Virus record (IMG/VR): IMGVR_UViG_3300012324_000010
Length of the DNA stretch: 64,000 bases
DNA from: a virus
Taxonomy: Duplodnaviria > Heunggongvirae > Uroviricota > Caudoviricetes
Reading direction: 5' to 3' (one strand)
The position numbers and the translations under genes were made by a program. Numbering within the stretch: the first letter of the stretch is position 1; every line of letters starts with the position of its first letter. Shown one piece after another: positions 19,826-56,966 of the stretch. The notes beneath the pieces were generated by a model. That model saw only the letters and a program-made list of their open reading frames with translations, had not been told where the DNA came from and did not search any database.

Positions 19826-20662
19826 TTACCAGCTAGATAGTAGAGAAGAGCCAGAGCTTAGACCAGGAACTGCAGGTTTAGGCAGTGTAGAAGGAATGTC
19901 TGGAAGAGGGGAAGGAGAAGGATCTGGTGCAGGTGAAGGCTGTGGAATATTATCCTGTCCAGAAACCTCTACACCCCATTGTGCAAAATCTTCAGATACT
20001 TCATCACCAAAATTAAGATCATCATTGTCAACATATCCACCAGAAAGAGAAGCAATGATATGTGCTACACCATTGTCATCTACAGAATAAATAGGAGATC
20101 CTGAATCACCACCAATAGCAAAAACACTAGCTTCTACACTTCCACGCTGGTAATCAATCTTAGTGACTTTACCACATGTCTTTTGAGTGCTCCTGCCATA
20201 TTTACATACAGCGTCTCCTTTACGCACATCACCAAGGGGTTGTGCATTTCCAACAGGAGTATTTCCATTAATAACACCAGAAGTTGTCACTCCTGGTGTT
20301 AGTTTGAAGATAGCCATATCACTAAATACCTTACCATCAGGATTGTGATGATAAGAGTTAGGACCATAGTAGTTTTTCATAAAAGTATCATCAGAAATGG
20401 GAACATTGCGAGAAGAAATCTTCTTCACAGTAGATCCATCATCACGCTTGCGCACACAATGTGCTGCTGTTACACCATAAAGATCTCCCTTTTTATCTTT
20501 TACCACTGAAGTAAGGGTGCATAGTGACACCCTGTTGTTAGAAAACTGGATTTCAATTTGATCTCCAGGATTTACTGAAGCAGGTGCAGCATGTGCCGCA
20601 ACAGGAGATAAGATAGCAACAGATGCAGCAAAAACAGCCGCTGCAAACTTAATCTTAAACAT
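19826..20662 (-). CDS. secreted S1-family (trypsin-like) serine protease with Pro-rich C-terminus
   Basis: Start trimmed to MFKIKFAAAV (SD GAAAGG). Signal peptide, catalytic His motif VTAAHC and Ser motif GGDSGSP; C-terminal PSPAPDPSPSPLP tail. Confidence 0.8.
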   Translation of the reverse strand: MFKIKFAAAVFAASVAILSPVAAHAAPASVNPGDQIEIQFSNNRVSLCTLTSVVKDKKGDLYGVTAAHCVRKRDDGSTVKKISSRNVPISDDTFMKNYYGPNSYHHNPDGKVFSDMAIFKLTPGVTTSGVINGNTPVGNAQPLGDVRKGDAVCKYGRSTQKTCGKVTKIDYQRGSVEASVFAIGGDSGSPIYSVDDNGVAHIIASLSGGYVDNDDLNFGDEVSEDFAQWGVEVSGQDNIPQPSPAPDPSPSPLPDIPSTLPKPAVPGLSSGSSLLSSW

Positions 20663-20793
20663 AGATAATGTGCCTTTCCAGATAGGTTTTTGATAGTTTG
20701 TATAGTAATAGATACTACTGTACAAGCAGAAGAGTACTACGCTGTGAAAAATCTGTCAAGAATATAGAAAAGAAATATGCATTATTTATATAG

Positions 20794-20814
20794 GTTTTCG
20801 TGTCCCTTTTTTAA
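20794..20814 (+). repeat. polar intergenic motif GTTTTCGTGTCCCTTTTTTAA (copy 7)
   Basis: same family. Confidence 0.75.
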
Positions 20815-20890
20815 TCTTATATAAAAATTCCCCTTTGATTCTTATAGAAAATCAAAGGGGTAGCTGAAAGAAGTGATTCTTCATATCACC

Positions 20891-21145
20891 CTAGAAGGTA
20901 ACACGATCAAGAATCTCTACATCAGACTTAGACTCAATGGATTCTTCCTCAATAAGCTCACGCTCTAGTGCAGAGATTGCACGCTTAAGGTTGGAACCAT
21001 AAATAGCACGCTTGTGAACGTCCTTGTTAAGGTCAAACTTTCCTTTATCATCTTTGTCCTTTTTGAAAACATAAGCAAAAACGTAGTTCATATAGTTTGT
21101 CCTTTGTCTAGGGTACAGTTTCTTTCTATGTGTTATGTGAAACAC
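20891..21145 (-). CDS. small basic/acidic hypothetical protein
   Basis: 84-aa ORF. Confidence 0.45.
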   Translation of the reverse strand: MFHITHRKKLYPRQRTNYMNYVFAYVFKKDKDDKGKFDLNKDVHKRAIYGSNLKRAISALERELIEEESIESKSDVEILDRVTF

Positions 21146-21192
21146 ATTGCAAGCATTTTACCACTATAAAAAATACTTTGTTGACAATAAAA

Positions 21193-21233
21193 ATAAAACA
21201 CCACTGTTTTCCCTTGATACAGTGGTGTTTTTG
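21193..21233 (-). terminator. intrinsic terminator downstream of tRNA-Thr
   Basis: acaccactg...cagtggtgt hairpin with flanking A/T runs, abutting tRNA 3' end. Confidence 0.7.
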
Positions 21234-21306
21234 AGCCTTCTATCGGGATCGAACCGATGACCTACGCATTACAAGTGCGTTGCTCTACCATCTGAGCTAA
21301 GAAGGC
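21234..21306 (-). tRNA. tRNA-Thr (anticodon TGT)
   Basis: gccttcttagctcagatggtagagcaacgcacttgtaatgcgtaggtcatcggttcgatcccgatagaaggct; anticodon loop CTTGTAA. Confidence 0.85.
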
Positions 21307-21503
21307 ATATGTGCTTATTAACCTGTGTCTTTATCACTGTCAATCAGCATAAATATAACTATAACACACAGTTTTTCTAACTGTCAAATTGATGCTCAAG
21401 ATTGTTTCTAACCAGAGGAAATTGAAAATAATAGAATAAGAATATCAATTGCTATAATCAATACATTGTAGTACTTTTTAACCTCTACTTTATTTTTAAG
21501 GAC

Positions 21504-21953
21504 GTGTCACCCATGGAGTTTTTTACCACCCCTTCTTGGTCAACATTGAGTGGAATATTTGTTCTATCACTCATTCTTTTTGGAGCTTTCATTGCCATCA
21601 TCTATGATCAGCAAGGTGAAGAAAATCACAGAAATGTAAGAATCATCACTGTGATATATGCAGCCTTGCAAATTACACTTAAAGTATTCCTTGTCATTGG
21701 AATATTCAAAATCACAGGTGGAACAGCTCAAGCAGGATGGGGGCTTTTCATTGGATATATCCTTGTTTTGGTTGTTGACATTCCTACTATTGCTTTAGCA
21801 TCTATTAAACGTCTTTCTCGTGGATATGAGGTATTGCAAGATAGTCTATTTGAAGATGAAGATGATATTAGCAAGGATGGAGATGAGGGTGAAAACAAGG
21901 ATGAAGATAAAGATGAGGATGACATTGACAAAGATAATGAGCCAACCAAATAG
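21504..21953 (+). CDS. membrane protein with acidic C-terminal tail
   Basis: 149 aa, 3-4 TM helices then DEDDISKDGDEGENKDEDKDEDD. Confidence 0.55.
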   Translation: MSPMEFFTTPSWSTLSGIFVLSLILFGAFIAIIYDQQGEENHRNVRIITVIYAALQITLKVFLVIGIFKITGGTAQAGWGLFIGYILVLVVDIPTIALASIKRLSRGYEVLQDSLFEDEDDISKDGDEGENKDEDKDEDDIDKDNEPTK

Positions 21954-22030
21954 AGCTGGTTGTTCCCATACATTCACAGCAGGTAATAACTTATACCTTC
22001 ATCCACATCATGCGGTTAAATACTAGTACT

Positions 22031-24335: not shown

Positions 24336-26573
24336 CTAGGGAATAGGATGGACAGCTTTCCTTCCAAACATCTGATCTTCAATCATAGGAGTCAATGTCT
24401 CTGCAAAGAGATTAGTAATGTGATGACTATCACGGTACACTACAACATTTCCCACAATAGGATTAACCCACCCATCAGTGATAATAGAGCTGTTAATATC
24501 CATCAAAGTAACTCCAGGAATACCCCTATATGCTTCTAGAGAAGGATCTATATCATTTAAAAGACCTTGTGAAGAAAATCCACATTCACTTGAGATATCT
24601 TTTCCATCTACCCTAGACTTGCTAACACAAATGCGCATATCATCATATTTACCATCTTCAGTAGTAGACCATGCAACATCTCGCATGAGATAGATGGGAA
24701 TATTCTTATCAGCAAACTTGCGCATAGATTCTACATACTTTTCTGGAACGATCTCTGGTCCTACACCTGTAGCAGTGCTAGGTCTAGTAGAGGTATGGAA
24801 AATACCTTCTGTAGGAGGGTTATTGAGAACATAGTCTACAACTTTGTCAGAGAAGTCTTTACATCCAGGATAATCTGAATTATCCCACTTCTTATCTAGA
24901 TAAAGAGCACAACCCATCTTAATCAAGGGTATAAGCTTTATACCTCTACGCTTAGCAATATCATCTAAAGCTGGTAGATACATTTCAGAATGGGATCCAC
25001 CTAGAATATACATTGTCTTATCAGAAGAGGTGTCTCCATATTCACAAGGAGTACCATCTTTTTTATTAAACACAATGTCATCGTTTTTAAAATCAGAAAA
25101 ACAGCCATCTTTCTGACTTTGTGGATACATGTTATCTACCCCTTCATCAGGGTTAGGCATAATGTCTACACCATCAGGAACAATCTTATTTTCTGTTACA
25201 GCCCTAGCTCCAGGATAAGCAACATCTTTGCCACCATTAGCAGCAATAGCATGTTCTACCTGAATCTTTTTAAGATGTTCCACCCCTGCATAAATTCCAG
25301 GAGAAGTAGCAACAGTAGCAATCATTACCACAATACATGTTGCAGCAGAACGCATTGCCACAGAAGGAGATCTGCGATGCTTCCTCTTAGCTTTTCCTGA
25401 AAGTATCTCTTTTAGTGTTGCTCTTTTAGGCTTTTTCTTTTGCCTTAATGGTTGTTCTACATAAACATGAGTAACCCATGCAAGAGCACTAGATATAACA
25501 ATGACAACAATACCTTGAAGAATGTCAAATTGTGGTCTAGACGTAATATGAGTAGCAATGATAAGCACCATCCAATGCCACAAATAAAGGCTATAAGAAA
25601 TTTTTCCTAGCCATAGCATAAAAGGAGTTTCAAAGATAAGCACTGGACCCATAGTTGCCCATGATTTCTCTTCTGCTTGATTATGATTTCCAGAAAAGAT
25701 AATCAACATAGCACCAACTAAAGGAACTAGTGTTAAAGGACCAGGAAACTGCTCTACACCATTGAGAACTAAGCCTGTACCTATAATGAGCACTACTCCT
25801 ACTAGTGTAGATACCCACCTTAGAAGAGGAGAAAATACTACCTTGTCCAATACAAAAAGACCAATAAGACCACCTAGTGCAATCTCCCAGAACCTAGAAA
25901 AAGTAGAATAATAGTTTTCTACCTGATTGTGACCACCTAGCCATATAGCATAAACAAAGGAGGAAACAGCTAAAATACCAACTACTGTTGCAACAAGATT
26001 CTTAGCATCTTTCCCTGTCTTCTTACACAGTGAAACACATATCACAATCAAAGCAATGACAAGTGCATAGATTTGTACCTGCACTGACATTGACCATAAA
26101 TGCTGGAAGGCATCAGCATCACTGCTAGCTCGTGCATAGGAATCACCATCTTGGATAAAAATCCAGTTAATACAATACAGTGCTGCAGCAGAAGCATGCC
26201 TTAGCATATCCTCCCACTGTGCAGGAGGAATAACCATAAGAGACAAGACAACTCCTGTGGCAATCATCACAATCAAAGCAGGATACAACCTACGCAAGAT
26301 TCTCAACATAGACTGTGTGTAGGATAGACCATCTTCTTTTTGTGCATTGCGTAGCTGAGAAGAAATCAGCAAAAGACCACCAATAAACAAAAAGATATCC
26401 ACACCAGAAGATACCCTGCCAATAAAGACATGGAAGATAACCACTAGAGCCAGAGCAAACCCTCTAAGACCATCAATGTGATGATAATAGCGCCGAGTGG
26501 AAGTAGAACTACTAGCCCTGTGACTCCCCCCTTTTCTAGGAACTAGTGTTTTAGGTGTCATCATTGTAGTCAC
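24336..26573 (-). CDS. acyltransferase-3 family membrane protein with C-terminal SGNH/GDSL hydrolase domain (OatA/OafA-like O-acetyltransferase)
   Basis: 745 aa; about 10 TM helices with acyltransferase-3 motifs (HHIDGLRGFALALVVIFH); C-terminal soluble domain containing GGSHS-type SGNH block. Confidence 0.8.
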   Translation of the reverse strand: MTTMMTPKTLVPRKGGSHRASSSTSTRRYYHHIDGLRGFALALVVIFHVFIGRVSSGVDIFLFIGGLLLISSQLRNAQKEDGLSYTQSMLRILRRLYPALIVMIATGVVLSLMVIPPAQWEDMLRHASAAALYCINWIFIQDGDSYARASSDADAFQHLWSMSVQVQIYALVIALIVICVSLCKKTGKDAKNLVATVVGILAVSSFVYAIWLGGHNQVENYYSTFSRFWEIALGGLIGLFVLDKVVFSPLLRWVSTLVGVVLIIGTGLVLNGVEQFPGPLTLVPLVGAMLIIFSGNHNQAEEKSWATMGPVLIFETPFMLWLGKISYSLYLWHWMVLIIATHITSRPQFDILQGIVVIVISSALAWVTHVYVEQPLRQKKKPKRATLKEILSGKAKRKHRRSPSVAMRSAATCIVVMIATVATSPGIYAGVEHLKKIQVEHAIAANGGKDVAYPGARAVTENKIVPDGVDIMPNPDEGVDNMYPQSQKDGCFSDFKNDDIVFNKKDGTPCEYGDTSSDKTMYILGGSHSEMYLPALDDIAKRRGIKLIPLIKMGCALYLDKKWDNSDYPGCKDFSDKVVDYVLNNPPTEGIFHTSTRPSTATGVGPEIVPEKYVESMRKFADKNIPIYLMRDVAWSTTEDGKYDDMRICVSKSRVDGKDISSECGFSSQGLLNDIDPSLEAYRGIPGVTLMDINSSIITDGWVNPIVGNVVVYRDSHHITNLFAETLTPMIEDQMFGRKAVHPIP

Positions 26574-28414: not shown

Positions 28415-30145
28415 TTACAGTATAATCAACCAACGCTTTTTCCCATAATCCCACACCTTATCCAACTCATTAAGCTCAGCAAGTTGAGACTCAGTAAGAC
28501 CATCTATATATTTCAAAGTGGGATCTTGTCTAAACCTAGAAATCCTATAGTTAAACTTATGCTTTCTTTCCATGCCAACTTTGTAGTAGTAATCTGGAAG
28601 AAGATCACCATCAAATGTAAATCCAAGAGTTTTATATAAGCTTCCATCAGAAACTGAATTGTCAGAAAATGTCACAATCTTTTCCAAACCATATTCTCTT
28701 GCGTAAGACATACCCTTTTTAAGAAGCTTTCCCATGCCACCTACAACCACACAAGAGGTTGCATACCTGTCTAGGTAGAGGGTGTTTTTATTCTTTCTCC
28801 AAGAAGACACAGCAACTAGATCACTATCTTGATCATAGAGACCAATATATTTACTTCCCTTTGAGCTTCCCTGAATATGGTATTCATCTAGGAAATCTCG
28901 TGCTGTAGCAAAATCCACAAAATCAAGAGTGGTATTTCTAGCATAAACTTTTCTATCTTGAGATACCCCAAGTTTATGAGAAATCATAGACTCTACTACT
29001 TTTCTTCTTTGCATCCAGTCATCTTCCCATACCACAATCAACTGAATTCCCTTATCTGCACAAATCTTCCACTTGGTAATGTGCTTATCTTTGGTTCTTC
29101 CTACCTTTTCACTGTGCCAATAAAGACCATTGAACTCAATAGCAATGGAAAGTTCTGGAATATAAATATCTAGCTCATGAGTTCTCAAAGCAGATCTATT
29201 GGAAGTTTTCACCTCTATTTCTTGAGGAAGTATAGATTTTACAAAATCAGCAACTTCAGTTTCCATGGTGGATACTTTCTTGCAGCAATGAGGACATCCA
29301 CTACCTCTTGTTCTATCACTTACAAGAGATTTCCAACTGTGACCATTGCCACATAGCCACCATACTTTCTTGGTTGAACTAGCAGGTACATCCTGTGGTG
29401 TAAGAGGAAGATTTTTGCTTGCATCCCATTCTTTAGATAGATCTGGAAAAAGAGTAGCAATATCATTGTCTCCAGATAGTACCTTTTGACCTGCGCATAT
29501 TGGACATCCACTTTTGTTCATGGATCTGTGATAAATGGAAGCTTTGTAACTATGATTTTTCTTTGGACATAACCACCATACTTTTTTACGAGATCCATAG
29601 CTATAAGATGTAGGTGGTAGGTCATTTTTATCACAATCCCATTCTTTTATAAGCTCAGGGAAACGTGTTTCAAGATCTGTTTCTCCTATAATCACCTTGT
29701 TTCCAGAACAATAAGGACATCCTGTTCCACCTGAAACACGTGAATTAATTTTGGTTTCCCACTCATGACCTTTATCACATATCCACCATGCTTTCTTTCC
29801 AGAATTTTGCATTACTTCCTGAGGACTAATCACATTCTTTTGGTGATTCCATTCCTTTGCAATATCAGGATGAATATGTGCAAAGTCATTAAATCCTTGC
29901 AAAACCTTTCTCCCTGCACAATAAGGGCATCCTCTTCCATGCACCCTGCTTTTAATAACAGCAGCCCAACTATGACCTTTATCACATTTCCACCATGCCT
30001 TCTTATGTGATCCAGGAAGTACTTGTTCAGGAGGAATGGTATTTTTATCCTCATCCCATTGTTGAGCAAGTCCAGGGTGTAAATAGACAAGGTTGTTTTT
30101 GCTTGTTACACTCCTGCTTGGTTTAGAAATGATATCATTTTCCAT
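28415..30145 (-). CDS. protein with four tandem zinc-ribbon repeats plus a Vsr/DUF559-like PD-(D/E)xK nuclease-fold domain and an unassigned C-terminal domain
   Basis: Four repeats of W(W)xCxxGHxWxxxxxxRxxGxGCPYCxGxKVxxGxNDxxxxxPxLxKEW; then ELDIYIPELSIAIEFNGLYWHSE...IQLIVVWEDDW. Confidence 0.6.
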   Translation of the reverse strand: MENDIISKPSRSVTSKNNLVYLHPGLAQQWDEDKNTIPPEQVLPGSHKKAWWKCDKGHSWAAVIKSRVHGRGCPYCAGRKVLQGFNDFAHIHPDIAKEWNHQKNVISPQEVMQNSGKKAWWICDKGHEWETKINSRVSGGTGCPYCSGNKVIIGETDLETRFPELIKEWDCDKNDLPPTSYSYGSRKKVWWLCPKKNHSYKASIYHRSMNKSGCPICAGQKVLSGDNDIATLFPDLSKEWDASKNLPLTPQDVPASSTKKVWWLCGNGHSWKSLVSDRTRGSGCPHCCKKVSTMETEVADFVKSILPQEIEVKTSNRSALRTHELDIYIPELSIAIEFNGLYWHSEKVGRTKDKHITKWKICADKGIQLIVVWEDDWMQRRKVVESMISHKLGVSQDRKVYARNTTLDFVDFATARDFLDEYHIQGSSKGSKYIGLYDQDSDLVAVSSWRKNKNTLYLDRYATSCVVVGGMGKLLKKGMSYAREYGLEKIVTFSDNSVSDGSLYKTLGFTFDGDLLPDYYYKVGMERKHKFNYRISRFRQDPTLKYIDGLTESQLAELNELDKVWDYGKKRWLIIL

Positions 30146-32776: not shown

Positions 32777-33235
32777 ATGAACTCTCCTAGTGCATCGCTG
32801 CGCACTCTTGCTGCAAAGGGTCTAGTTCCTTTGTCTTTAGTTGCAGCTCTTGTTACTGGAAACCCTACTGTTTCTGCACAAGAAACCACCTCTTATAATA
32901 AAGATTACAGCTTTTCCCAAGAGGAAAAACCACAGGACAAAAAGCCTTCTTATTCTTTTGGAGCTAAACTCTTTGCTCCTTCTTCTTTTGATGGCCATGC
33001 TGGAATGTGGATAAGCAGAAACCTATCTACTACATCATCTGGGGATATGAACATACCTCAGCTTCATGAGTATTTTGTCTCCAATGAAGGAGTTTTGTAC
33101 AAAACCACTATTACTTCTGGAAAAAACACTATGGAAGAAAAACACACTGGTGTTCTTCCTGAAAAAATAGCACAAAGTCTTAGAGAAAAAATGCCTTCTA
33201 TGCCTGCTGAACTGGTATTTCAGCACTTTTCTTAG
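32777..33235 (+). CDS. secreted hypothetical protein
   Basis: Signal peptide ...VTGNPTVSAQ. Confidence 0.55.
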   Translation: MNSPSASLRTLAAKGLVPLSLVAALVTGNPTVSAQETTSYNKDYSFSQEEKPQDKKPSYSFGAKLFAPSSFDGHAGMWISRNLSTTSSGDMNIPQLHEYFVSNEGVLYKTTITSGKNTMEEKHTGVLPEKIAQSLREKMPSMPAELVFQHFS

Positions 33236-34440: not shown

Positions 34441-35724
34441 TTAAAAGAATACCTTTTTTACTTTATCTAGGAAAGATACACTAACTTCTCCACCTGTATT
34501 AACCTTAGGTCCTACATTGGTAGAAATATTTTTCTTCTTTACAGGTGTAGAGTCATTTTTGTCCCTTGATACCCTTTCTTTGTTGGAAGTATCATTGTCT
34601 TCTTTATCTTCAGTATCATCTACTGATACTGATATATCATCTTGTGAAACTTCTCCCTCAGCTGGTTGTGGGGGTTGTATGGTATAGCCATCATCACTAG
34701 GCTCGCTGGTAGAGGTTGTGGATTGGTCAGAATCTGTGCTGCTATCTTCTGAGGAAGAAGGAAATTGAGATGAGCTACTGGGTGTAGAACTTTCTGTGTG
34801 AGAAGATGCTGTAGAAGGAGATTTATCATCTACATCCTTGTCACCATCTACATCTTTATTCCCGTTAGTTTCCTCTGGTGAAGTTGTAGAAGGTTGTGGT
34901 TCATTCTCAGAAGGATTGGGTTCATCTTCTCCTGTACTATCATCTCCTGTATTATCAACAAACACTTCCTGTCCTACTGTTTTTTCAATCCAGTCTTTGT
35001 ACCCAGAAACAGGCATGTACATAGTTCTTTTGTTTCCTACTGGATCTATTCCTTGTGGGGTTGCTCCAAAAGCAAGAACACCATAAAGTGTATCATTGAT
35101 CACAAATGGTCCTCCAGAGTCTCCCACTGTGGAGATACCATCTTTGAAGATAACAGGATTGATAGTCATTCCTGGGTTAAACTCGTCATCTTTTTCTGTC
35201 TTATGAAACATTGTTCCATCTAGAGTATTAAGATTTTCTAGTTTCTTCTTTTCACCTGGACCCCAACCATATCCTTTTCCTGGGGTATCTTTACTAATAG
35301 TACCATTGTAAAGTTTCATAGGAGTAGCATTGTCTACAGGTTTATTAAGACGAAACAACGCCATATCTCTATCTGAGGAGTAAGTCTTTACATCATCTAC
35401 TGTATAAACAGGCTGTGATTTAGCACTGGTTCCAAAAGAAATATTTGAATACCATTTATCCATTCCATCTTTAGGAATGCAGTGTTGTGCTGTCAACACC
35501 CATTGTGGAGAAATCAAAGTGCCAGTACAAGTCAAGGTATGAACTGTAGGGTTTACATTATCAATATCCTCTTTATTTTTCATAAAAATTCTTGCTACTG
35601 CACTGGTGGTGTCATTGTCAGGTGCATCTGTGGTAGAAACCATTGCTGATGCTGGTACTGCACAAGATGCAAGTGCAATAGCAGCTGTAGCAGAAGATGT
35701 ATATATTTTGCGTTTTAAAGACAT
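34441..35724 (-). CDS. secreted S1-family serine protease with S/T/D-rich linker and conserved C-terminal tail
   Basis: Signal peptide; CTGTLISPQWVLTAQHC (His), GDSGGPF (Ser); C-terminal VGPKVNTGGEVSVSFLDKVKKVFF. Confidence 0.85.
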   Translation of the reverse strand: MSLKRKIYTSSATAAIALASCAVPASAMVSTTDAPDNDTTSAVARIFMKNKEDIDNVNPTVHTLTCTGTLISPQWVLTAQHCIPKDGMDKWYSNISFGTSAKSQPVYTVDDVKTYSSDRDMALFRLNKPVDNATPMKLYNGTISKDTPGKGYGWGPGEKKKLENLNTLDGTMFHKTEKDDEFNPGMTINPVIFKDGISTVGDSGGPFVINDTLYGVLAFGATPQGIDPVGNKRTMYMPVSGYKDWIEKTVGQEVFVDNTGDDSTGEDEPNPSENEPQPSTTSPEETNGNKDVDGDKDVDDKSPSTASSHTESSTPSSSSQFPSSSEDSSTDSDQSTTSTSEPSDDGYTIQPPQPAEGEVSQDDISVSVDDTEDKEDNDTSNKERVSRDKNDSTPVKKKNISTNVGPKVNTGGEVSVSFLDKVKKVFF

Positions 35725-35895
35725 AAAAGAGCATTCCTTTTTTAGACATCATTGTGTTGTTATGCATATTTTGCACATAGCATTGTATATCTATGATACA
35801 TTTTTTCTCCTTTTATTGTCACAGGAGAAAACAATACAAAAACACCTCCATTCCTTAGAATGAGAAATAGAGGTGTTATAAACTAAATTGCAATA

Positions 35896-37185: not shown

Positions 37186-37268
37186 GAAAAATCCTTCTTT
37201 CTTTTATTATCTATCCCTCTTATGAAAAATCATGAACTCATGATTGGTAACATGTCTATTGTAGATGT

Positions 37269-38751: not shown

Positions 38752-39054
38752 CTACAAAGCTGCATATTCTGCAGCAGAACACAACATCTTTCCCCACTGT
38801 GCCTGGCTGCTATCTTTGTCCTCTTCCCCACGGAAGACTTTCCTTCCTAGCTTATATGCTTCAGCAGAGCTAAAAGAAGCTACCAGTTCTTCTGATGACA
38901 GCAATTCAACGCTATTAGAGTGTGCTTTAGCTACTACACTTTTACCTTCTAGAGACCACGTACAGGTATCACCAATAGATACAGTAGCCTTAATGCGGGG
39001 AACATCCCCATTTCTGTAATAGTTCTTCTTGCTCTTATTATAAGTCATTGTCAT
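38752..39054 (-). CDS. hypothetical protein
   Basis: 100-aa ORF; weak support. Confidence 0.35.
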   Translation of the reverse strand: MTMTYNKSKKNYYRNGDVPRIKATVSIGDTCTWSLEGKSVVAKAHSNSVELLSSEELVASFSSAEAYKLGRKVFRGEEDKDSSQAQWGKMLCSAAEYAAL

Positions 39055-39238: not shown

Positions 39239-41752
39239 ATGAAGAAAAACACTATTTTAGCTTGTACTGCTCTGTCTCTTATTCTACCTTGTGTCCCTGC
39301 TCATGCTGCTAATGATATTTACAATATATCTCCAGCTTCCACCCCACAGCAGATAAAAGACTCTACCTCTTCCCAGGTAATGACTATCCATGATAGAGAA
39401 CGATCTTCTGATCTCACTACCATTTGGATAGCACCAAGGAAAGACTGTAATGATAAAGCTGATGGTAGTGAAAGCAACCCAGTATGTGATGTGTCACAGG
39501 CTAGCTCTATTCTTAACAACCTTTACCAACAAGGAAAAGCCCAAGGTGATGTAGACATTAGATTTAAAACAGGAAAAGGTGTTGTCTATCAGCCTGAGAA
39601 TGGAAAAAGATTTGGTGATTTTACCTTCGCTCCTACAGCAGGACATGTAGTGAGGTTTATTCCTGATTGGTACAACAACATTGATGACCTAAAGAAAATC
39701 AATGCTGATAACAGAATCAATGTTAAGGGATATCCAGCTTCACAATCTAAAAACAATGACTCTGGGGTGGGTCTATCTATTTCTCCTAAATCTAATAAGG
39801 GAGGAACATATCAAATCAGTGGATTCCATTTTGACAACCTGGTAAACCCCTTAAAAGTTATCACCCCTCAAGTAACCAAAGATAAAATATCCAATAGCTC
39901 TGATCCAGAAGCTATCTACAAAAACATTAGACATTCCCAGAATGCACCCATAGGGAACATGCTTATTTCCAATAACGTTTTTGATCATGTAGGTGATGCT
40001 TACACAGCTGGTGGTGGCAACTACATCTCAGGTGCAATGAGGGTATGGGGTGCTACCAACATGCTTATCAAAGACAACACTTTCATCAATGGAAAAGCAA
40101 CCTCTAAAAACACTTCTACTTCCCATGTTATCTACAACTATATGACATCAGGAACAGTCTATGAAGGAAATACCTTCAAAAATAATAACTACTCTTTGAT
40201 CAGAGCACGTTTGAGCAATGATGATGTTATTACCGGAAATAACTTTTCTACATCTAAAAGCCTTTTTGGAAAAGACAAGGAAGTGATTGGAACATGGTAT
40301 CAAGGATACCTCTATGGTAAAGGTGGTTTAAGAGATAATAAATCTTATGCAGAATGCAAAGGTGATGGTCCTTTTGAGTTCAACAACACCTTTACAGGAA
40401 GACACTCTACTGTCATCAGAAAACTTAGACAACAACCTTATTGCACAGACAAAAAACGCATCACAGCACCTATGTTTCTAGAAGGAATACAAACTGGAGA
40501 AAAAGAATATTCCCTTCGTTGGGGAGATGCTGATACCAATGGTGATGGTGTGAAAAACTACCATGTCTATGTAGGAAAAGCTAATAAATATGGAACCCCT
40601 ACCTCTGATGTACCTGTAAAGGTAAAAACCACTTCTTCTTCTGTACATGAAGCCACAATTGATAAATCTATGTTTGACAAAGCTGGTATTAAACCAGGAG
40701 ACAACTTCCACTATTACGTGGTAGCAGAATCTACATCTGGATGGTTGTCTTCTAGAAACCAGCTAAAGACATCAGCATTCCTTGATAAAACCTACCAGGG
40801 AAGAGACAACTATAACGTAGCTAGAGTGGAATCATGGGATAGAATCACTGATGGAAAGAAGCCAGAAAAATCCACCTTCAACTATGAACTTGTCTCACAT
40901 AAGGTATCACCTAGCTATAAGAGTGTGAAAGTAAAACCAGGAGACAAGGCAACACAATCTGTGTCCCTCTCCAAGGTTCCTGCTTATACTACATTTTCCT
41001 TAAAAGATTCCACGTTCCCTAAAAAGGTATCTATAGATCCACACACAGGGAAAATCACTGCTGACACTGAAGAAGTAAAACCTGGAAAATACACAATAGA
41101 TGTTGATGTGCAATATGGTGACTGGTCTCATGATACAGCAACATTGAACCTTGAAGTAGAAGAATCAACAGCTGACAAGACAACCACTGATAAACCCTCT
41201 ACTAGCAAGCCAACCACTGATAAACCCTCTACTAGCAAGCCAACCACTGATGCTGGTGAAAAACCTTCTACTAGCACTAGTGAAAAACCAACTTCTGCTG
41301 ACAAGCCAACTAGCACATCTAATAATGTCTCTTCCAAGACATCTAGTTCTAAGCCATCATCTAGTTCTAGTGGTGTAACAACTAGCAAAAATCCTACTTC
41401 TCACACAACATCAACTAGTAAGAAGAAAACCACTTCTAGTGCTGTAGATCCTTCTACAGCACAACCTTCTTCTTCAGTAGATAAAGGAAGCTCTCATCAC
41501 TTGTCACTATGGGATAAAATAAAGTCCATCTTTTCTCCACATAAAGAAGATCAACCTTCTTCCAATGGACAAGTAAGAACCTCCTATCATGCAGTTGATA
41601 CAGAAAATAGTGAAAACAACACAGGAGATAGATATAACTATCACCCTGATGATACAAACAATGACATGGAAGAAAAAGTAGGTCCAGAAGTCAACACAGG
41701 TGGAAAAGTGGATAGATCTTTCCTAGATAAAGTTGTATCCATTGTGAGATAG
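39239..41752 (+). CDS. large secreted right-handed beta-helix (pectate-lyase-like) surface protein with S/T/P-rich stalk and conserved C-terminal tail
   Basis: Signal peptide MKKNTILACTALSLILPCVPAHA; repeated N.(F/V).(N/D)N..xG beta-helix turns; TTDKPSTSKP tandem repeat (30-bp unit at 41183-41242); C-terminal VGPEVNTGGKVDRSFLDKVVSIVR. Confidence 0.8.
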   Translation: MKKNTILACTALSLILPCVPAHAANDIYNISPASTPQQIKDSTSSQVMTIHDRERSSDLTTIWIAPRKDCNDKADGSESNPVCDVSQASSILNNLYQQGKAQGDVDIRFKTGKGVVYQPENGKRFGDFTFAPTAGHVVRFIPDWYNNIDDLKKINADNRINVKGYPASQSKNNDSGVGLSISPKSNKGGTYQISGFHFDNLVNPLKVITPQVTKDKISNSSDPEAIYKNIRHSQNAPIGNMLISNNVFDHVGDAYTAGGGNYISGAMRVWGATNMLIKDNTFINGKATSKNTSTSHVIYNYMTSGTVYEGNTFKNNNYSLIRARLSNDDVITGNNFSTSKSLFGKDKEVIGTWYQGYLYGKGGLRDNKSYAECKGDGPFEFNNTFTGRHSTVIRKLRQQPYCTDKKRITAPMFLEGIQTGEKEYSLRWGDADTNGDGVKNYHVYVGKANKYGTPTSDVPVKVKTTSSSVHEATIDKSMFDKAGIKPGDNFHYYVVAESTSGWLSSRNQLKTSAFLDKTYQGRDNYNVARVESWDRITDGKKPEKSTFNYELVSHKVSPSYKSVKVKPGDKATQSVSLSKVPAYTTFSLKDSTFPKKVSIDPHTGKITADTEEVKPGKYTIDVDVQYGDWSHDTATLNLEVEESTADKTTTDKPSTSKPTTDKPSTSKPTTDAGEKPSTSTSEKPTSADKPTSTSNNVSSKTSSSKPSSSSSGVTTSKNPTSHTTSTSKKKTTSSAVDPSTAQPSSSVDKGSSHHLSLWDKIKSIFSPHKEDQPSSNGQVRTSYHAVDTENSENNTGDRYNYHPDDTNNDMEEKVGPEVNTGGKVDRSFLDKVVSIVR

Positions 41753-41766: not shown

Positions 41767-41802
41767 AAAAAAGCGCTGAGAGCATTTCTCAGCGCTTTTT
41801 GC
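41767..41802 (+). terminator. bidirectional intrinsic terminator
   Basis: aaaaaagcgctgagag...ctcagcgcttttt. Confidence 0.8.
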
Positions 41803-44624: not shown

Positions 44625-45152
44625 ATGGATACCACAGAAAAACCCCACAACTCTACTGCTAAAAAGCTTGCCACTATTGCAGCAGCTATAGGTGTGCTCA
44701 TAGCTATGATTGTAGCTTTTGTCATTTTTTCTCAAAAAGATAGCAATGATTCTGAAAAAATCAACTCAACACAAACACAGCAACCTTCTGATGAAGACAT
44801 GCTCCCAGAAGAGTCAAAGACTTCATCTGCACGAGACTTGCTAGAAAAACATGATGGAAAAGTAACACAACAGGATAAAGATGCAGTAAAATCAGCTAAA
44901 AAGTATCTTGACAACCCTGGTGGATTCTCTCCTGATACACTAACAGAAAAGCTTAAAAAAGATCATATTCCTGAAACTTCCATTGACTATGCACTAGATA
45001 ACGCTGATGCAAATTGGAATGAACAAGCAAAAACTTCTGCACAAGAGATCAAAAACAGTCTTGGATGGACCAATGAGCAAATCACCAACACACTAGTTCT
45101 TTCAGGTTTTACTGATGAACAAGCACAATATGCTGTAAATAATATTTCCTAA
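44625..45152 (+). CDS. Ltp-like (host cell surface-exposed lipoprotein family) membrane-anchored protein
   Basis: N-terminal TM; C-terminal repeats AKKYLDNPGGFSPDTLTEKLKKD... and LGWTNEQITNTLVLSGFTDEQAQYAVNNI match the Ltp repeat pattern (A..YL....FSr..L..QL...GFs...A.YAV..). Confidence 0.5.
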   Translation: MDTTEKPHNSTAKKLATIAAAIGVLIAMIVAFVIFSQKDSNDSEKINSTQTQQPSDEDMLPEESKTSSARDLLEKHDGKVTQQDKDAVKSAKKYLDNPGGFSPDTLTEKLKKDHIPETSIDYALDNADANWNEQAKTSAQEIKNSLGWTNEQITNTLVLSGFTDEQAQYAVNNIS

Positions 45153-45168: not shown

Positions 45169-45210
45169 AAAGCAGGGAAGAGCACAAAGCTTTATCCCTG
45201 CTTTTTTCTA
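45169..45210 (+). terminator. bidirectional intrinsic terminator between convergent Ltp-like genes
   Basis: aaaagcagggaag...cttatccctgctttttt. Confidence 0.7.
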
Positions 45211-45666
45211 ATTGAGATGATATTCTTTTAAAGCATTTTTAATCATTTTTCTAGTGAAACCATCTGCAACCAACATATCTATCATGTCATTGGTAGATAA
45301 TCCTGTTGTCTTTTCTATATCCTGTAATGCTTGCTGTATTTCTTTGGTATAATCAACATCAACATTATCCAAAGCATATTTAATAGCTTCATCATTATTG
45401 ATATCTTTTTCCAGCTTCTCATAAAGTTTCTTTTTAGAAACAGAATCACCATCAACATACCCTTGAGCTGCATCAAGTGCTTTTTCAAAAAGTTCAGGAG
45501 TTTCTCCTTGTGCGGCTTTTTCTGCAGTAGAAACTATATCTTCTGCAGGTTTAACTTCCTTATCTTTTCCAATATAAGTATCTTTGTCCATAAGAGTACT
45601 ACAAGAAGAAGTAAGCACAGAAGATATAGCTACACTACATATCATTGTTGTTTTTCTAGAAAACAT
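45208..45666 (-). CDS. Ltp-like lipoprotein (second copy, convergent)
   Basis: Signal peptide with lipobox-like LTSSCS; repeats EAIKYALDNVD...LVADGFTRKMIKNALKEY. Confidence 0.5.
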   Translation of the reverse strand: MFSRKTTMICSVAISSVLTSSCSTLMDKDTYIGKDKEVKPAEDIVSTAEKAAQGETPELFEKALDAAQGYVDGDSVSKKKLYEKLEKDINNDEAIKYALDNVDVDYTKEIQQALQDIEKTTGLSTNDMIDMLVADGFTRKMIKNALKEYHLN

Positions 45667-49556: not shown

Positions 49557-50540
49557 TTACCACTGTCCATAGATTTCAGAATGTGCTTTAATATTCATAT
49601 TTCCAGCAATAATACCTCCATGGCAGATTGCATGATCTAGAACATGAACATTTTCGCATACCATGCTATCTCCTTGGATTGCACAGTTGCCATAAACATG
49701 TGAAGTGCCGCACACCTGGGAGTTATCTTTTACTACAGCATTGTCATAAACGTGAGATCTTCCATAGCACAATGCTTCACCTGATACTTCTGCATGTCCA
49801 TAGACAACACTGTTGTTATAGATTTTGGCGCTTCCCTTGATTACACAATGTCCATAGGCTTTAGCTTCATCTGATAGACAAGCATGATCAGAAACATGAC
49901 AATATCCTTTAAGTTGAACACTGTCTACAACAATAGAAGATCCATCAACTCGTGCATAGTCTGAAACTACAACATTTCCACAAACATGAGCATTGTCTCC
50001 TACTTGAGCATCATCTTTTACTTGTGCTTTTCCATAGACACAAGCTTTCCCACAAAGGTAAGCATAGCCATAAATATCAGCACTTCCACTGACTTTCACA
50101 CTGTCTTTGACAGTAGCCCTTTGATGCACTTGAGCATTGTCAAAGACTTGACTGTTATCTCTAATGATTGCACTGCTATAGACATGAGCATTGCCATATA
50201 CTTGTGCATTTCCTAGAACAGAAGATTTGCCTGAAACATGAGCTTTGTCATACACCTGCGCATTGTTTTTAATAGTTGCATAATCTTTTACTACTGCATT
50301 TCCATATACTTGTGCAGTGTCTTTTGCACAACTAGAACCAGAAAGAACAGCATTGTCATATACCTTGGCGTTATCAAAAACCCATGCATTATCAGAAAGG
50401 TTATGTGGTGATTCTACAAAACCTCCTTTGTCTCCCTGAGATACACCATGATCAGGAATATCTTTTAATGCTTGAATCCTGTGTAGAGTATGTCCTGAAA
50501 CAACAATGGTGTCATGGGTGAGTCTAAAATAGGTATCCAT
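49557..50540 (-). CDS. hexapeptide-repeat (left-handed beta-helix) protein
   Basis: 327 aa composed of about 45 consecutive hexads ([AS]x[VI]x[GDN]N-type, e.g. AQVYGNAVVKDYATIKNNAQVYDKAHV...). Confidence 0.65.
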   Translation of the reverse strand: MDTYFRLTHDTIVVSGHTLHRIQALKDIPDHGVSQGDKGGFVESPHNLSDNAWVFDNAKVYDNAVLSGSSCAKDTAQVYGNAVVKDYATIKNNAQVYDKAHVSGKSSVLGNAQVYGNAHVYSSAIIRDNSQVFDNAQVHQRATVKDSVKVSGSADIYGYAYLCGKACVYGKAQVKDDAQVGDNAHVCGNVVVSDYARVDGSSIVVDSVQLKGYCHVSDHACLSDEAKAYGHCVIKGSAKIYNNSVVYGHAEVSGEALCYGRSHVYDNAVVKDNSQVCGTSHVYGNCAIQGDSMVCENVHVLDHAICHGGIIAGNMNIKAHSEIYGQW

Positions 50541-51452: not shown

Positions 51453-51523
51453 TATTCCTACCTTGAAGATATAACTATAAAAGAAAAGACAGCACAAGGT
51501 GTTCTTGTACTGTCTTATTCCTG

Positions 51524-51597
51524 CGCTTCTGACGGGACTCGAACCCGCGACCCCTTGCGTGACAGGCAAGTGCGCTAACCGGCTGCGCCACAGAAGC
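51524..51597 (-). tRNA. tRNA-Asp (anticodon GTC)
   Basis: gcttctgtggcgcagccggttagcgcacttgcctgtcacgcaaggggtcgcgggttcgagtcccgtcagaagcg; anticodon loop CTGTCAC. Confidence 0.9.
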
Positions 51598-54768: not shown

Positions 54769-54775
54769 ATGTAAG

Positions 54776-54826
54776 AAAAAACACCCCATTGGAAGATTAT
54801 AAAATATCAACCAAGGGGTGTTTTTC
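54776..54826 (+). terminator. bidirectional intrinsic terminator
   Basis: aaaaaacaccccattgg...ccaaggggtgttttt. Confidence 0.8.
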
Positions 54827-54836
54827 ATATATTTAA

Positions 54837-55076
54837 CTACAATGCAATGTGAGTAGAAACAACAGTCTTTTCTCCATTGTCTTCTACTTTTACCTTATCT
54901 ACAAAAATGAAATCATAGTGTAGAGATTGAATATGTAGCTCTGCTTCCTTTTTGCTTTTCCACTCTGACTCTACATGAGTATCCTTGCTATAAGAATGAG
55001 CAACCCTTACTACCCACAGGTATCCATCTTCTTGTGGTTTGGATGTTGTTGCTAGAGTATCTAGAACATTAAACAT
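54837..55076 (-). CDS. hypothetical protein
   Basis: 79-aa ORF. Confidence 0.5.
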   Translation of the reverse strand: MFNVLDTLATTSKPQEDGYLWVVRVAHSYSKDTHVESEWKSKKEAELHIQSLHYDFIFVDKVKVEDNGEKTVVSTHIAL

Positions 55077-55171
55077 TGTATCTTCTTTTCTCTCCTTGAA
55101 ATAGTGGTGTGGATTTATCTTCTAATAATGATTATTGCATAGATAGTTTTGTTAGAGCAAATAAAAGAAAG

Positions 55172-55243
55172 CTCCCCCGGTAGGATTCGAACCTACATAT
55201 CACGCATTAACAGTGCGCTGCTTTACCAATCAGCCACGGAGGA
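55172..55243 (-). tRNA. tRNA-Asn (anticodon GTT)
   Basis: tcctccgtggctgattggtaaagcagcgcactgttaatgcgtgatatgtaggttcgaatcctaccgggggag; anticodon loop CTGTTAA; U1-A72 first pair. Confidence 0.8.
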
Positions 55244-55284
55244 ATGTTTACAAAAAATAGTATAATACATAAAGTGAATCATTG

Positions 55285-56007
55285 TCAAATACCATTTTCA
55301 CCAGCAGTATTGCCACTATTTTCTGTATTTGGGTTAGGAAGAGGAATATTAGGTAAAGGCTGATCTCCTACTCCACTGTTGTTATCAGAAGTGCTACCAC
55401 CACTATTTCCTTGAGTTGCATTTCCTTGGGTGGTATTTCCCTGATCTGTAGGAGAAGGACTATTTCCATTATTTCCAGATGTGTTTCCTTGTTGAGCAGG
55501 GGTGTTGTTTCCCCTGTTGTTTCCCCTGCTGTTTCCTCTGTCAGAAGTGTTTTTATCTGGTGTATTAGGACTGTTGTGTCTTTGTGGAGTATTCACATTT
55601 TCTTCAGGATAGCTATTCCCATTGGTGTTTCTTTTTTGATTATTACCTCCAGTATTATCACTGTCATTTTGCTGCTGGTTTTCACCATTTCCTGTGGTAT
55701 TGTCATTTCCTTTCCCAGGAATGCCAGTAGGTGTTGTACCAGTGTTTGCAGAAGAATCTTGCCCTGGATTGTAGGTCTCTACAGTATCTACTGTAGTGGT
55801 AGTAGGGGTGTTGTTTTTGATAATAACCCTTTCTGTAGGAACAGTGGTAACAATCACTGTTTTAACAACAGGATCTTCAGGACCTTTCTTTCCTTCATAA
55901 TAGTCAAAAGCTTTCCCTACAAGGTTATAAGACAGAAGGGAAGATAATACTGCTCCTATAGAGTAGATAACAATGGTTGTTTTCTTGCCGGGATTAAACT
56001 CAAACAT
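55285..56007 (-). CDS. membrane-anchored low-complexity N/G/T-rich surface protein
   Basis: N-terminal TM then ~170 aa of NTxGN-type low complexity. Confidence 0.55.
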   Translation of the reverse strand: MFEFNPGKKTTIVIYSIGAVLSSLLSYNLVGKAFDYYEGKKGPEDPVVKTVIVTTVPTERVIIKNNTPTTTTVDTVETYNPGQDSSANTGTTPTGIPGKGNDNTTGNGENQQQNDSDNTGGNNQKRNTNGNSYPEENVNTPQRHNSPNTPDKNTSDRGNSRGNNRGNNTPAQQGNTSGNNGNSPSPTDQGNTTQGNATQGNSGGSTSDNNSGVGDQPLPNIPLPNPNTENSGNTAGENGI

Positions 56008-56090
56008 GTCTTTTTCCCTCCTTGAAAGTACGTTGTATTTTTTTACCTGTGGTGTGGTTTTTGCCTTATCATATCACTACAGTGCAGCAT

Positions 56091-56966
56091 CTACATCATT
56101 GACATTTTATGTGCCAGCTTCTCCATGGCTTTTTCTATAAATAGTACCTGTGTAGAGTAAGGATGCGGGATAAAAGAAAGAGAAGAAAAGTAAGTTTTTG
56201 CCAATGTATAGCTATCTGCAGAAAATCCCCTCCATTGAGGACCAGTAGCACGAGTGCTAATAAGGAAGTTTTCTGCTCTAGAGATTATGAAACTTTTGTA
56301 CTTATTATCACTATTGTACTTTTTCTCATTATCAATAGTGGTATAAAAATTGGAATAGTTATTACCAAAAAATCCAATGTATACTCCTAAAAGTCCTTTC
56401 CCAGGAATCCATACAGGTCCACCAGAATCCCCAAGTTTCCCATAAGCTCCAGAATCTCCTACAATGACATTGCCTGCTACTATTTTGATACTTCCACAGT
56501 TAATCTTTTTCTGCACTCTGCTATATACACATACTTTTTCACTGCTTTTAACATCAGAAATATCTACTTTTCTATCACCAGAATAGATATTTTCTCCCAA
56601 GGAAACATAGTTGTTAAGTTTTATAACATTGAAATCATTTCCCATAGATTGAGACAAAAGAGTTTTGCTACTTCTGTCAGTGCGAGACTCAATAGTTCCA
56701 ATGATGTGATCATCATTGTCATATACTACTGATTTCTTCCCTTTGAAAGAACAGTGATCTGCGGTATAAGCAAGCCTTTCTTTATGATCTATATATCCAA
56801 TAGTGCAAGTTTTCTTTTCATCAATAGATATTTGATCACCTTGCACAAGGGTAGGAAGATCCTCAATAGGTGTGGTATAAATAGGTTGTGCAGAAGCGTG
56901 AGCGGGAAAAAGAGCAATAAAGCAGAAGGCACACAGTAGCGCTATCTGCTTTGTCAAAGTATGCAT
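56091..56966 (-). CDS. secreted S1-family serine protease
   Basis: Signal peptide ...FPAHASA; His motif YTADHC; Ser motif LGDSGGPVW. Confidence 0.8.
   Translation of the reverse strand: MHTLTKQIALLCAFCFIALFPAHASAQPIYTTPIEDLPTLVQGDQISIDEKKTCTIGYIDHKERLAYTADHCSFKGKKSVVYDNDDHIIGTIESRTDRSSKTLLSQSMGNDFNVIKLNNYVSLGENIYSGDRKVDISDVKSSEKVCVYSRVQKKINCGSIKIVAGNVIVGDSGAYGKLGDSGGPVWIPGKGLLGVYIGFFGNNYSNFYTTIDNEKKYNSDNKYKSFIISRAENFLISTRATGPQWRGFSADSYTLAKTYFSSLSFIPHPYSTQVLFIEKAMEKLAHKMSMM

Follow-up and report, generated by a model that had tools for sequence, protein, structure and literature searches.

Among described systems, the Spl operon and exfoliative toxin A, both of Staphylococcus aureus, appear to be the closest functional analogues of the genes considered here. 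The Spl proteases (SplA-F, encoded on the nuSa-beta island) have no propeptide, and cleavage by signal peptidase creates their active N-terminus. Exfoliative toxin A is a phage-encoded secreted protease of the chymotrypsin fold that cuts desmoglein-1 in skin. We analyzed a 64,000-nucleotide stretch of DNA (IMG/VR record IMGVR_UViG_3300012324_000010, assigned to the Caudoviricetes; "the window" below means this stretch at its full length) that carries five genes for secreted serine proteases, three of them in direct tandem. The likeness to the Spl operon lies in the tandem, diverged, secreted paralogs of the chymotrypsin fold, in the apparent lack of a propeptide and in the skin-associated organism; the likeness to exfoliative toxin A lies in a secreted protease carried by a phage (here a probable one) in an organism of human skin. 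The Spl enzymes differ in that they belong to the S1B (V8/glutamyl endopeptidase-like) branch, are released and chromosomally encoded, and have neither a stalk nor a tail at the C-terminus. Exfoliative toxin A, also of the S1B branch, differs in being a soluble toxin encoded by a single gene of a small temperate phage, and the relation to it that can be shown does not go beyond the fold.

At the level of protein family, the tandem enzymes (T1, T2 and T3) share with the S1A family, which includes the Streptomyces trypsins and the kallikreins, the Pfam domain, the catalytic triad, the Cys42-Cys58 disulfide and the GDSGxP oxyanion motif. They differ from it in lacking the Cys191-Cys220 disulfide as well as Asp189, and in having either an added stalk and tail (T1 and T2) or an acidic insert and a basic tail (T3). 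The two remaining enzymes (S1a and S1b) resemble the Rv1815/alpha-lytic (S1E) group in being small and secreted, and in their alpha-lytic-type fold, triad and two cysteine pairs. For Rv1815 of Mycobacterium tuberculosis, secretion and serine protease activity have been reported (PMC13090312).

From the evidence given below we conclude that: i) the five protease genes are real, have catalytic residues that look intact in the sequence, and encode new members of well-known families; ii) they fall into two subfamilies that are related only at the level of clan or fold, one belonging to PF00089 (T1, T2 and T3) and the other alpha-lytic/Rv1815-like (S1a and S1b); and iii) T1, T2 and a neighbouring surface protein have in common a C-terminal tail, previously undescribed, with the look of a signal for sorting to the cell surface. 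The replicon that carries them is quite probably a huge phage-like element and not a bacterial chromosome. The explanation that best covers the whole, and to which we give a moderate probability, is that a huge phage-like element of skin encodes secreted proteases of two subfamilies, that the tail anchors some of them, and that they serve to remodel the envelope. The novel and testable parts are the probable setting in a huge skin phage and the undescribed C-terminal module.

Secreted serine proteases of two subfamilies

The five open reading frames (ORFs) are present at the positions originally given, all of them on the minus strand, and each has a predicted Sec-type signal peptide, in line with the original prediction: S1a (19826-20662; 278 aa), T1 (34441-35724; 427 aa), T2 (35896-37185; 429 aa), T3 (37269-38651; 460 aa) and S1b (56091-56966; 291 aa). 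An AxA-type cleavage site was predicted in five of five by a heuristic that reads the n-, h- and c-regions, and purine-rich ribosome-binding sequences were found upstream of all five starts. S1a probably starts at the ATG at 20662 instead of the TTG at 20725; the signal peptide that results is of the classical kind (MFKIKFAAAVFAASVAILSPVAAHA|AP), with the predicted cut at ...VAAHA|AP. The triads are H68/D115/S187 in S1a, H81/D120/S203 in T1, H85/D122/S205 in T2, H143/D178/S263 in T3 and H71/D111/S181 in S1b. The Ser motif reads GDSGSP in S1a, T2 and T3 and GDSGGP in T1 and S1b, in agreement with the original prediction. The TAAHC or ADHC motif that it gave around the catalytic His applies to S1a (TAAHC) and S1b (TADHC) and not to the tandem copies, where the motif is TAQHC (T1), SAAHC (T2) and TAKHC (T3). 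The suspicion that these could be pseudo-proteases fails, the triad being intact in all five and invariant in the family alignments. No sixth copy was found when the window was searched by tblastn with all five queries. The five had been taken for paralogs of one another; they are instead three PF00089 enzymes and two of the alpha-lytic/Rv1815-like type.

T1, T2 and T3, adjacent on the minus strand (34441-38651) as had been noted, match PF00089 (Trypsin) with E-values of 8e-23 (82 bits), 6e-27 (95 bits) and 3e-24 (86 bits), respectively, at a gathering cutoff of 20.6 bits. These matches, like the NCBIfam matches of S1a and S1b given below, lie far outside what chance would produce. An alignment of 11 sequences (T1, T2 and nine relatives from metagenomes) shows no variation at His85, Asp122 and Ser205 (T2 numbering), in the GDSG box or in the pair Cys70-Cys86 (T2 numbering), which corresponds to the His-loop disulfide. 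The catalytic His57, Asp102 and Ser195, in this order and together with Gly193 and Asp194, are invariant in this alignment and in one of 32 members with bovine trypsin. T2, the only one of the three that was modelled, gave an AlphaFold2 (AF2) model with a predicted local distance difference test (pLDDT) score of ~85-95 in the core, a disordered region at residues 260-420 (<50) and a short helix at 421-428. The core of the model matched S1A structures in Foldseek with an E-value of 1e-11 and a template modelling (TM) score of ~0.7.

Since none of the three has Asp189 (Ile in T1, His in T2, Gln in T3), they would be members of the trypsin family that are not trypsin-like in specificity. The specificity pocket was read by alignment to bovine trypsin. 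In the window, positions 189/216/226 are I189/G216/T226 in T1, H189/A216/G226 in T2 and Q189/G216/V226 in T3; across the orthologous groups, the T1 group has I/G/T, the T2 group H or Y/A or G/G and the T3 group Q/G/V. The pocket residue sets differ between the copies and are fixed within each orthologous group, and the three enzymes probably prefer different P1 residues.

The three copies are 33-46% identical to one another. In a neighbour-joining tree of the catalytic domains, T1, T2 and T3 form three separate groups, each of which holds the window copy and its ortholog from the related metagenomic loci L001/L004. A protein 74% identical to T2 (P0007) occurs in four independent metagenome assemblies (L001-L004) with the gene order kept: Rib-domain protein, 98-aa ORF, T3, T2, T1, 234-aa protein, Band_7 protein and DUF4379 protein. 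T1, T2 and T3 go back to an old triplication, in tandem, of one PF00089 (S1A) enzyme, and each copy has its own orthologous group. The array is neither an assembly artefact nor a recent duplication, as shown by the divergence of the copies and by the gene order repeated in four independent assemblies. Between the window and L001, identity is 82-96% in the catalytic domains, 49-62% in the T1 and T2 linkers and 75-88% in the last 24 residues.

The diversification of linkers and C-termini within the array was borne out, and so were the tail types that had been read from the sequence: VNTGG in T1 (VKTGG in T2), Pro-rich in S1a, and His-rich and basic in T3. In T1 a disordered, acidic, Ser/Thr-rich linker of ~150 aa is followed by a GPKVNTGG tail, and in T2 the disordered linker (260-420) is followed by a GPTVKTGG tail. 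T3 carries an acidic insertion of 75 aa (residues 50-125), rich in Asp, Glu and Ser and with a net charge of -24, between its N-terminal strand and the His-loop; a basic C-terminal region (residues 315-460; net +18, 17 His) replaces the shared tail. Both T3 regions are ~90% conserved in the L001 ortholog. At the other end of the proteins, cleavage at the signal-peptidase sites predicted by the heuristic would expose MVST in T1, LVSD in T2 and IVDG in T3. These termini would be equivalent to Ile16-Val17, the N-terminus (of the form I/L/V-V-x-x and able to pair with Asp194) on which activation depends in enzymes of the chymotrypsin family, and no propeptide is apparent.

Between T2 and T1 a terminator-like hairpin (35841-35877, minus strand) is followed by a promoter-like site (35822-35793, minus strand), both by consensus match; T1 may have its own promoter there. 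Directly upstream of T3 lies an ORF for a 100-aa cytoplasmic protein (38752-39054, minus strand), which is found at the same position, with 98 aa, in four of four related loci.

S1a and S1b are ~24% identical to each other and show no relation to the T group at the sequence level. They match the NCBIfam model for Rv1815-family serine proteinases (NF051463) with E-values of 5e-15 (55.4 bits) and 1e-21 (77.2 bits), respectively, below its equivalog cutoff of 175 bits; they are distant relatives and not equivalogs. Neither has a significant Pfam match (S1a matches Trypsin_2 at E 0.0065, below the cutoff), and the weak PDB matches of S1a are to alpha-lytic protease (E 0.2). His71, Asp111 and Ser181 (S1b numbering) are invariant in ten sequences, S1a among them, and two Cys pairs are conserved in S1a and S1b. 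The AF2 model of S1b has a core pLDDT of 70-87, and its best Foldseek matches are alpha-lytic protease and the Lysobacter proteases L1/L5 (E 4.5e-9, TM 0.62-0.65); Spl structures are also among its fold matches. S1b can thus be assigned to the alpha-lytic type by its fold model and sequence, and S1a by sequence alone. In both, the catalytic domain begins ~15-20 residues past the predicted signal cut, which leaves no room for a long folding pro-region. This absence sets them apart from the Rv1815/alpha-lytic group, as do their scores, far below 175 bits, and their C-termini, an 80-residue extension in S1b and the Pro-rich tail in S1a. The exact S1a protein is present on a 231,935-bp ENA contig, and orthologs of S1b, 86-91% identical, occur on contigs of up to 381 kb.

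The shared C-terminal tail

The same architecture is found in T1, in T2 and in the Rib-domain protein next to the array: a signal peptide, a functional domain, a disordered stalk of 100-170 residues and a conserved tail. The Rib-domain protein (39239-41752, plus strand; 837 aa) is transcribed divergently from the array; an N-terminal domain without assignment precedes its RibLong domain, which is followed by a Ser/Thr/Pro stalk and the tail. The L001 ortholog of this protein is 90% identical. A large beta-helix surface protein had been predicted to adjoin the array. It is present and secreted, and RibLong is the one domain that could be shown in it, the beta-helix of its N-terminal half being putative. 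The tail occupies the last 24 residues of each protein. In T1 (34444-34515, minus strand) it is GPKVNTGG followed by EVSVSFLDKVKKVFF; in T2 (35899-35970, minus strand) it is GPTVKTGG followed by NVEQKSFFSKIKNLF, with a hydrophobic moment of 0.59; and in the Rib-domain protein (41678-41749, plus strand) it is the C-terminal end of the 837-aa chain, GPEVNTGGKVDRSFLDKVVSIVR. All three end in VGPxV[NK]TGG plus 15 residues, the latter including SFLDKVKKVFF, SFFSKIKNLF or SFLDKVVSIVR, and the consensus is GPxV[NK]TGG-x4-5-SF[FLW]xK[VI]xx[LI]F. The last ten residues are amphipathic, with hydrophobic moments of 0.55-0.66 in the three window tails. Orthologs retain the tail even where the linker can no longer be aligned. 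The original prediction had seen the VNTGG tail of T1 and had missed that it is part of a shared and strongly conserved C-terminal module, present also on the neighbouring surface protein.

An exhaustive search of 1.84 billion representative proteins with a profile built from 11 tails returned 49 clusters, of which 47 have the strict motif. In 42 of these 47 strict-motif clusters the distance from TGG to the C-terminus is exactly 15 or 16 residues, and in 45 it is 15-18. Most full-length carriers have a signal-peptide-like N-terminus by a crude hydrophobicity test, with a few exceptions (for example P0083-P0085). The 41 carriers that were scanned for domains included nine trypsins, three RibLong proteins, two cutinases, two SpaA proteins and two VWA proteins, and about half had no Pfam domain. 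At least five domain families therefore carry the tail, and three carriers lie within the window. Ten of the tail clusters were looked up, and they consisted of Logan/ENA sequences only. The tails, searched alone, matched no NCBIfam sorting-signal model, and the motif was not found in the searchable literature, where full-text matches to VNTGG or VKTGG were unrelated peptides.

The tail occurs in all seven distinct genomic contexts that were read (the window, L001-L004, L033/L034, L035/L036, L037 and L038), which have a GC content of 37-50%. Phage markers accompany it: rII genes in the window, L037 (rIIA-like only) and L038, and other phage-type genes in L033-L036. Because all seven contexts are the same kind of element, the tail is a trait of this clade of elements. 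L033 and L035 each carry a sortase gene (PF04203), 8-9 kb away from a gene with the tail.

Like LPXTG/sortase signals, the tail is C-terminal, follows a long Ser/Thr/Pro stalk in proteins that have a signal peptide, and is found on adhesins as well as enzymes that are not related to one another; it has an invariant T-G, and in two related loci a sortase gene lies nearby. It differs in its sequence, GPxV[NK]TGG, which has no more than the T-G in common with LPXTG, and in that only 15-16 amphipathic residues follow, with no membrane span and no Lys/Arg-rich end. The analogy with the C-terminal amphipathic anchor of Escherichia coli PBP5/DacA is a functional one only: there, too, an exported enzyme ends in a short amphipathic helix, but that anchor has no counterpart of the invariant GPxVxTGG box before the helix. 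The general features of a sorting signal are all found: the tail is at the extreme C-terminus, is carried by signal-peptide proteins with unrelated domains, occurs several times per genome and is restricted to one lineage. These features suggest that it tethers proteins at the cell surface by means of its helix, by sortase-type processing at T|G, or by both.

Replicon, relatives and neighbouring genes

Of all signs, an rIIA/rIIB pair most strongly favours a large phage over a chromosome as the replicon. The rIIA-like gene (5654-8221, plus strand) encodes 855 aa with a GHKL ATPase domain and matches phrog_612 (RIIA) at E 1.3e-22; the rIIB-like gene (8454-9299, plus strand) follows it, and the window ORF set gave a match to a RIIB PHROG at 3e-31. 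In L032, PF26926 (Phage_T4_rIIB) is recorded on a 275-aa gene directly after rIIA, a position that matches that of the window rIIB. The rII genes recur in the window, L032, L037 (rIIA-like only) and L038. PHROG matches in the flanks of the window and in related loci add PNKP (1e-92), an RNA ligase, a UvsX-like recombinase, a clamp loader, a primase and homing endonucleases, and a T4-type topoisomerase subunit, a dCMP deaminase and a ClpB with an insertion were also found in flanks or related contigs. The non-structural phage markers thus comprise rIIA/rIIB, PNKP with RNA ligase, the UvsX-like recombinase, homing endonucleases and a set of tRNAs.

Eight tRNA genes lie in the window, ~1 per 8 kb (Ile-tat, Arg-tct, two Arg-cct, Thr-tgt, Asp-gtc, Asn-gtt and Lys-ctt), at 3242-3589, 21233-21306, 51523-51597 and 55171-55243 on the minus strand and at 63486-63783 on the plus strand; further tRNAs (Pro-tgg, Glu, Gly, Met and Ser) were found in the flanks and a related contig. 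The GC content of the element is 38%. AGA and AGG make up 55% of its Arg codons, ATA 15% of its Ile codons and ACA 32% of its Thr codons, and GC at third codon positions (GC3) is 0.29. The tRNA set, which decodes AGA, AGG, AUA and ACA, fits this AT-rich codon use, and these are codons that a high-GC host would read poorly. The host is probably an actinobacterium, Gram-positive and of high GC content. It is unusual in itself for a tRNA-Ile of bacterial type to have the anticodon UAU. In L035 (1874-1947) ARAGORN reports, within a tRNA cluster, a tRNA-like gene with a four-base anticodon (ggaa), which is either frameshift-suppressor-like or a miscall.

Against bacterial RecA the RecA-like protein reaches only 104 bits, whereas ClpB from that locus reaches 807 bits in comparison with ClpB of M. 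tuberculosis. This contrast fits a virus with recent uptake of ClpB from an actinobacterial host better than a cell. The longest contigs that bear orthologs measure 231,935, 359,645, 359,681, 374,128 and 380,901 bp. Most called genes in the related loci have no Pfam domain on record. Other recognisable genes of the window encode TnpB, an SNF2 helicase, NT5C, MscS, a Band_7 protein, an isochorismatase and a SWEET-like protein. The protease genes had been read as an unusual density of secreted proteases on a segment of bacterial chromosome, suggestive of a predatory or epibiotic lifestyle. With a phage-like element as the probable replicon (rIIA/rIIB, rare-codon tRNAs, PNKP, RNA ligase, homing endonucleases and UvsX-like RecA), their number says nothing direct about a cellular lifestyle. 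The host-associated source that had also been suggested did find support: one orthologous contig bears the name 'SRR3191698.PRJNA46333.539655_human.skin.metagenome'. The study codes of two further contigs belong to what we take to be skin studies. A preprint mentions that twenty novel jumbo phages have been reported from skin (10.1101/2025.05.01.651599).

The nearest sequence relatives of T2 are trypsins of Streptomyces and other actinobacteria (26-30% identity), and that of S1b is a Mycobacterium S1 peptidase (29%). Among 185,579 GTDB species representatives, parts of which were masked, which weakens the result, only full-domain matches of 23-30% identity in unrelated genomes were found, with the exception of one 39% match over a 57-residue fragment. 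The best PDB sequence matches of T2 and T3 are human kallikrein-6, PSA and kallikrein-7, and not bacterial trypsins. Capture of a host gene was considered as an explanation for this likeness and rejected: it is a matter of sequence rank at ~28% identity, and the structure search showed no such preference. The top rank of kallikrein-6, curious as it is for a skin element, probably reflects the composition of the PDB.

Several neighbouring genes are related to the envelope. A 745-aa protein with Acyl_transf_3 and SGNH domains (24336-26573, minus strand; Pfam E 9e-26 and 1e-21) is an OatA-like O-acetyltransferase; it matches a PHROG annotated as 'O-antigen acetylase' at 2e-99, which makes it a candidate surface-modifying gene. 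Two small proteins, encoded at 44625-45152 (plus strand) and 45208-45666 (minus strand), are putative Ltp-like proteins by size and by gene order relative to L001, not by an alignment; in L001, Lipoprotein_Ltp is recorded on two genes of 152 and 175 aa, the same sizes as this pair. The second, unlike the first, has a signal peptide and a lipobox-like Cys. PHROGs annotate Ltp-type proteins as superinfection exclusion, and two window ORFs, probably the Ltp-like pair, matched superinfection-exclusion PHROGs (best E 2.8e-28). A secreted 152-aa protein (32777-33235) also lies among the envelope-related genes near the array.

Some further features of the window and of related loci were recorded. Directly 3' of the Rib-domain gene (41768-41800) there is a perfect GC-containing hairpin of 14-15 bp with T and A runs on both strands, like a bidirectional terminator. 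A 327-aa hexapeptide/beta-solenoid repeat protein (49557-50540, minus strand), with weak matches to YdcK and bactofilin, gives the only clear beta-solenoid signal in the window. Genes for TnpB/IS605 OrfB, with a Cas12f-like TNB domain, are present in the window (10371-11546, plus strand), L026 (13764-15497), L033 (16201-16762, cut by the end of the locus) and L037 (2675-4195); they occupy different places in every related locus and look like active mobile insertions. Four-repeat DUF4379 treble-clef zinc-finger or related proteins, several per element, are encoded in the window (28415-30145, minus strand), L030 (7463-9397) and L037 (12960-15329), and the four-fold DUF4379 protein matches HNH/homing-endonuclease PHROGs. 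L033 (10630-15337) and L035 (14910-20546) carry ClpB with an insertion of ~360 residues together with a very divergent sortase, and L035 alone also a 293-aa polytopic membrane protein. The ClpB insertion is annotated in L033 as a LAGLIDADG intein, and the best PDB match of this ClpB is M. tuberculosis ClpB. A pooled scan gave a match to a terminase-large-subunit PHROG at 1.5e-40; it could not be traced among ten candidate proteins, may be driven by an intein, and was not counted as evidence.

Proposed role and rival explanations

The most economical reading is that the cell which carries the element has its surface remodelled by it. Cleavage by signal peptidase would expose in T1-T3 an N-terminus of the form L/M/I-V, the equivalent of Ile16-Val17; given this N-terminus and the lack of a propeptide, the three enzymes would be active on export. 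After Sec-dependent export, the tail would hold T1, T2 and the Rib-domain protein on the cell surface. It could do so with its amphipathic helix in the membrane interface, or the protein could be cut at T|G and transferred by the divergent sortase of the related contigs; both routes may apply. T3 may be retained on the envelope electrostatically through its basic His-rich tail, which is speculation. Together with the O-acetyltransferase and the probable Ltp-like lipoproteins, the proteases would remodel the envelope of the infected cell, and their possible targets include phage receptors, surface proteins of competitors and the skin proteins around the cell. A more far-reaching version, which we put forward tentatively and think doubtful as it stands, is that of a skin clade of huge rII-bearing phages with a surface-display system of their own, made up of a new sorting signal and a divergent phage-encoded sortase, which re-dress an actinobacterial host with proteases, cutinases and adhesins.

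A number of observations weigh against these proposals. Neither capsid, portal and tail genes nor an unambiguous terminase gene turned up in ~74 kb of the element's own contig and ~100 kb of related contigs. One would sooner expect genes for MscS, Band_7, a SWEET-like protein, isochorismatase, ClpB and a sortase in a cell. There was no DNA match in GenBank phages or PLSDB and no relative in IMG/VR, and tblastn with rIIA and T2 gave no match in GenBank phage records (50,697 records for T2); the label 'phage' rests on profile-level markers only. The signal peptides were predicted with a home-made heuristic. As to the tail, its helix in the AF2 model of T2 has a low confidence (pLDDT ~52), and it has no LPXTG pentapeptide, no transmembrane span and no basic end. 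The sortase was seen in related loci and not in the window; it had no PDB sequence match, BLASTP gave no alignment with S. aureus SrtA, and it is very divergent; by an alignment made by eye, the catalytic Arg may be lost.

We consider it unlikely that the replicon is instead the chromosome of an uncultured, divergent, small-genome Gram-positive bacterium of skin, probably an actinobacterium, in which the tail would be the sortase signal of the lineage, the tail-bearing proteins its surface proteome for life on skin, and the rII, PNKP and tRNA genes prophage remnants or oddities. The cell-type genes named above fit such a chromosome, as does the OatA-like acyltransferase, and so do the related contigs with their sortase, NlpC/P60 and SpoU genes and a ClpB very near that of M. 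tuberculosis. The tail-bearing set is as large and varied as a cell surface proteome, and contigs of 212-381 kb could be parts of a genome of ~1 Mb. However, in the same ~74 kb and ~100 kb there was no gene for a ribosomal protein, RNA polymerase, an aminoacyl-tRNA synthetase or core metabolism; 19 of the 38 sizeable non-protease ORFs of the window that were scanned individually had no Pfam match; and RecA is far too divergent for a cellular one while ClpB of the same locus is conserved. The recurrence of rIIA/rIIB across the window and three related loci (rIIA-like only in L037) also speaks against a chromosome, and so does the density of tRNAs, with the duplicated Arg-cct and the Ile-tat. 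Nothing above 30% identity over the full domain was found among the GTDB representatives, a point that the masking weakens.

Two other explanations keep the phage-like replicon or leave it aside. To the view that the proteases serve the phage life cycle, in lysis and release or in the processing of exported phage proteins, with the tail as a temporary tether, we assign a distinctly low probability. It would agree with an rII-bearing element that has envelope-acting genes nearby, with enzymes that need no propeptide removal and so would be active on export, and with the NlpC/P60 cell-wall hydrolases found near tail-bearing genes in related loci. Yet three sub-functionalised paralogs and two further S1 enzymes, long kept, seem to exceed what an accessory to lysis needs; the Rib, SpaA, VWA and cutinase proteins with the same tail point outward; and no holin/endolysin neighbourhood was seen around the array. 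There is, finally, a slight chance that the tail is a conserved C-terminal interaction peptide that docks on a partner, or on other tails, with no role in cleavage or at the membrane. The lack of a transmembrane segment, of LPXTG and of any matching sorting-signal model is in keeping with docking, and the link to a sortase is one of neighbourhood in two related loci only. Against it stand the strictly terminal position with a fixed spacing of 15-16 residues in 42 of 47 strict-motif clusters, and the occurrence mostly on signal-peptide-like proteins with a long disordered stalk and unrelated domains, which are classic hallmarks of a sorting signal.

Should the replicon prove to be a huge phage, many of its genes would be given over to hydrolases and adhesins that are exported and tethered at the surface, which is unusual for phages. 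Such a phage could shape the surface and the behaviour of skin bacteria, in a tissue whose desquamation is controlled by host proteases from this very family. A display system of the kind proposed would, if real, alter the dealings of the infected cell with other phages, with neighbouring microbes and with skin. The 24-residue motif marks the exported surface proteome of an uncultured clade, and it may define a new sorting pathway or sortase specificity, with potential use in protein display or ligation.

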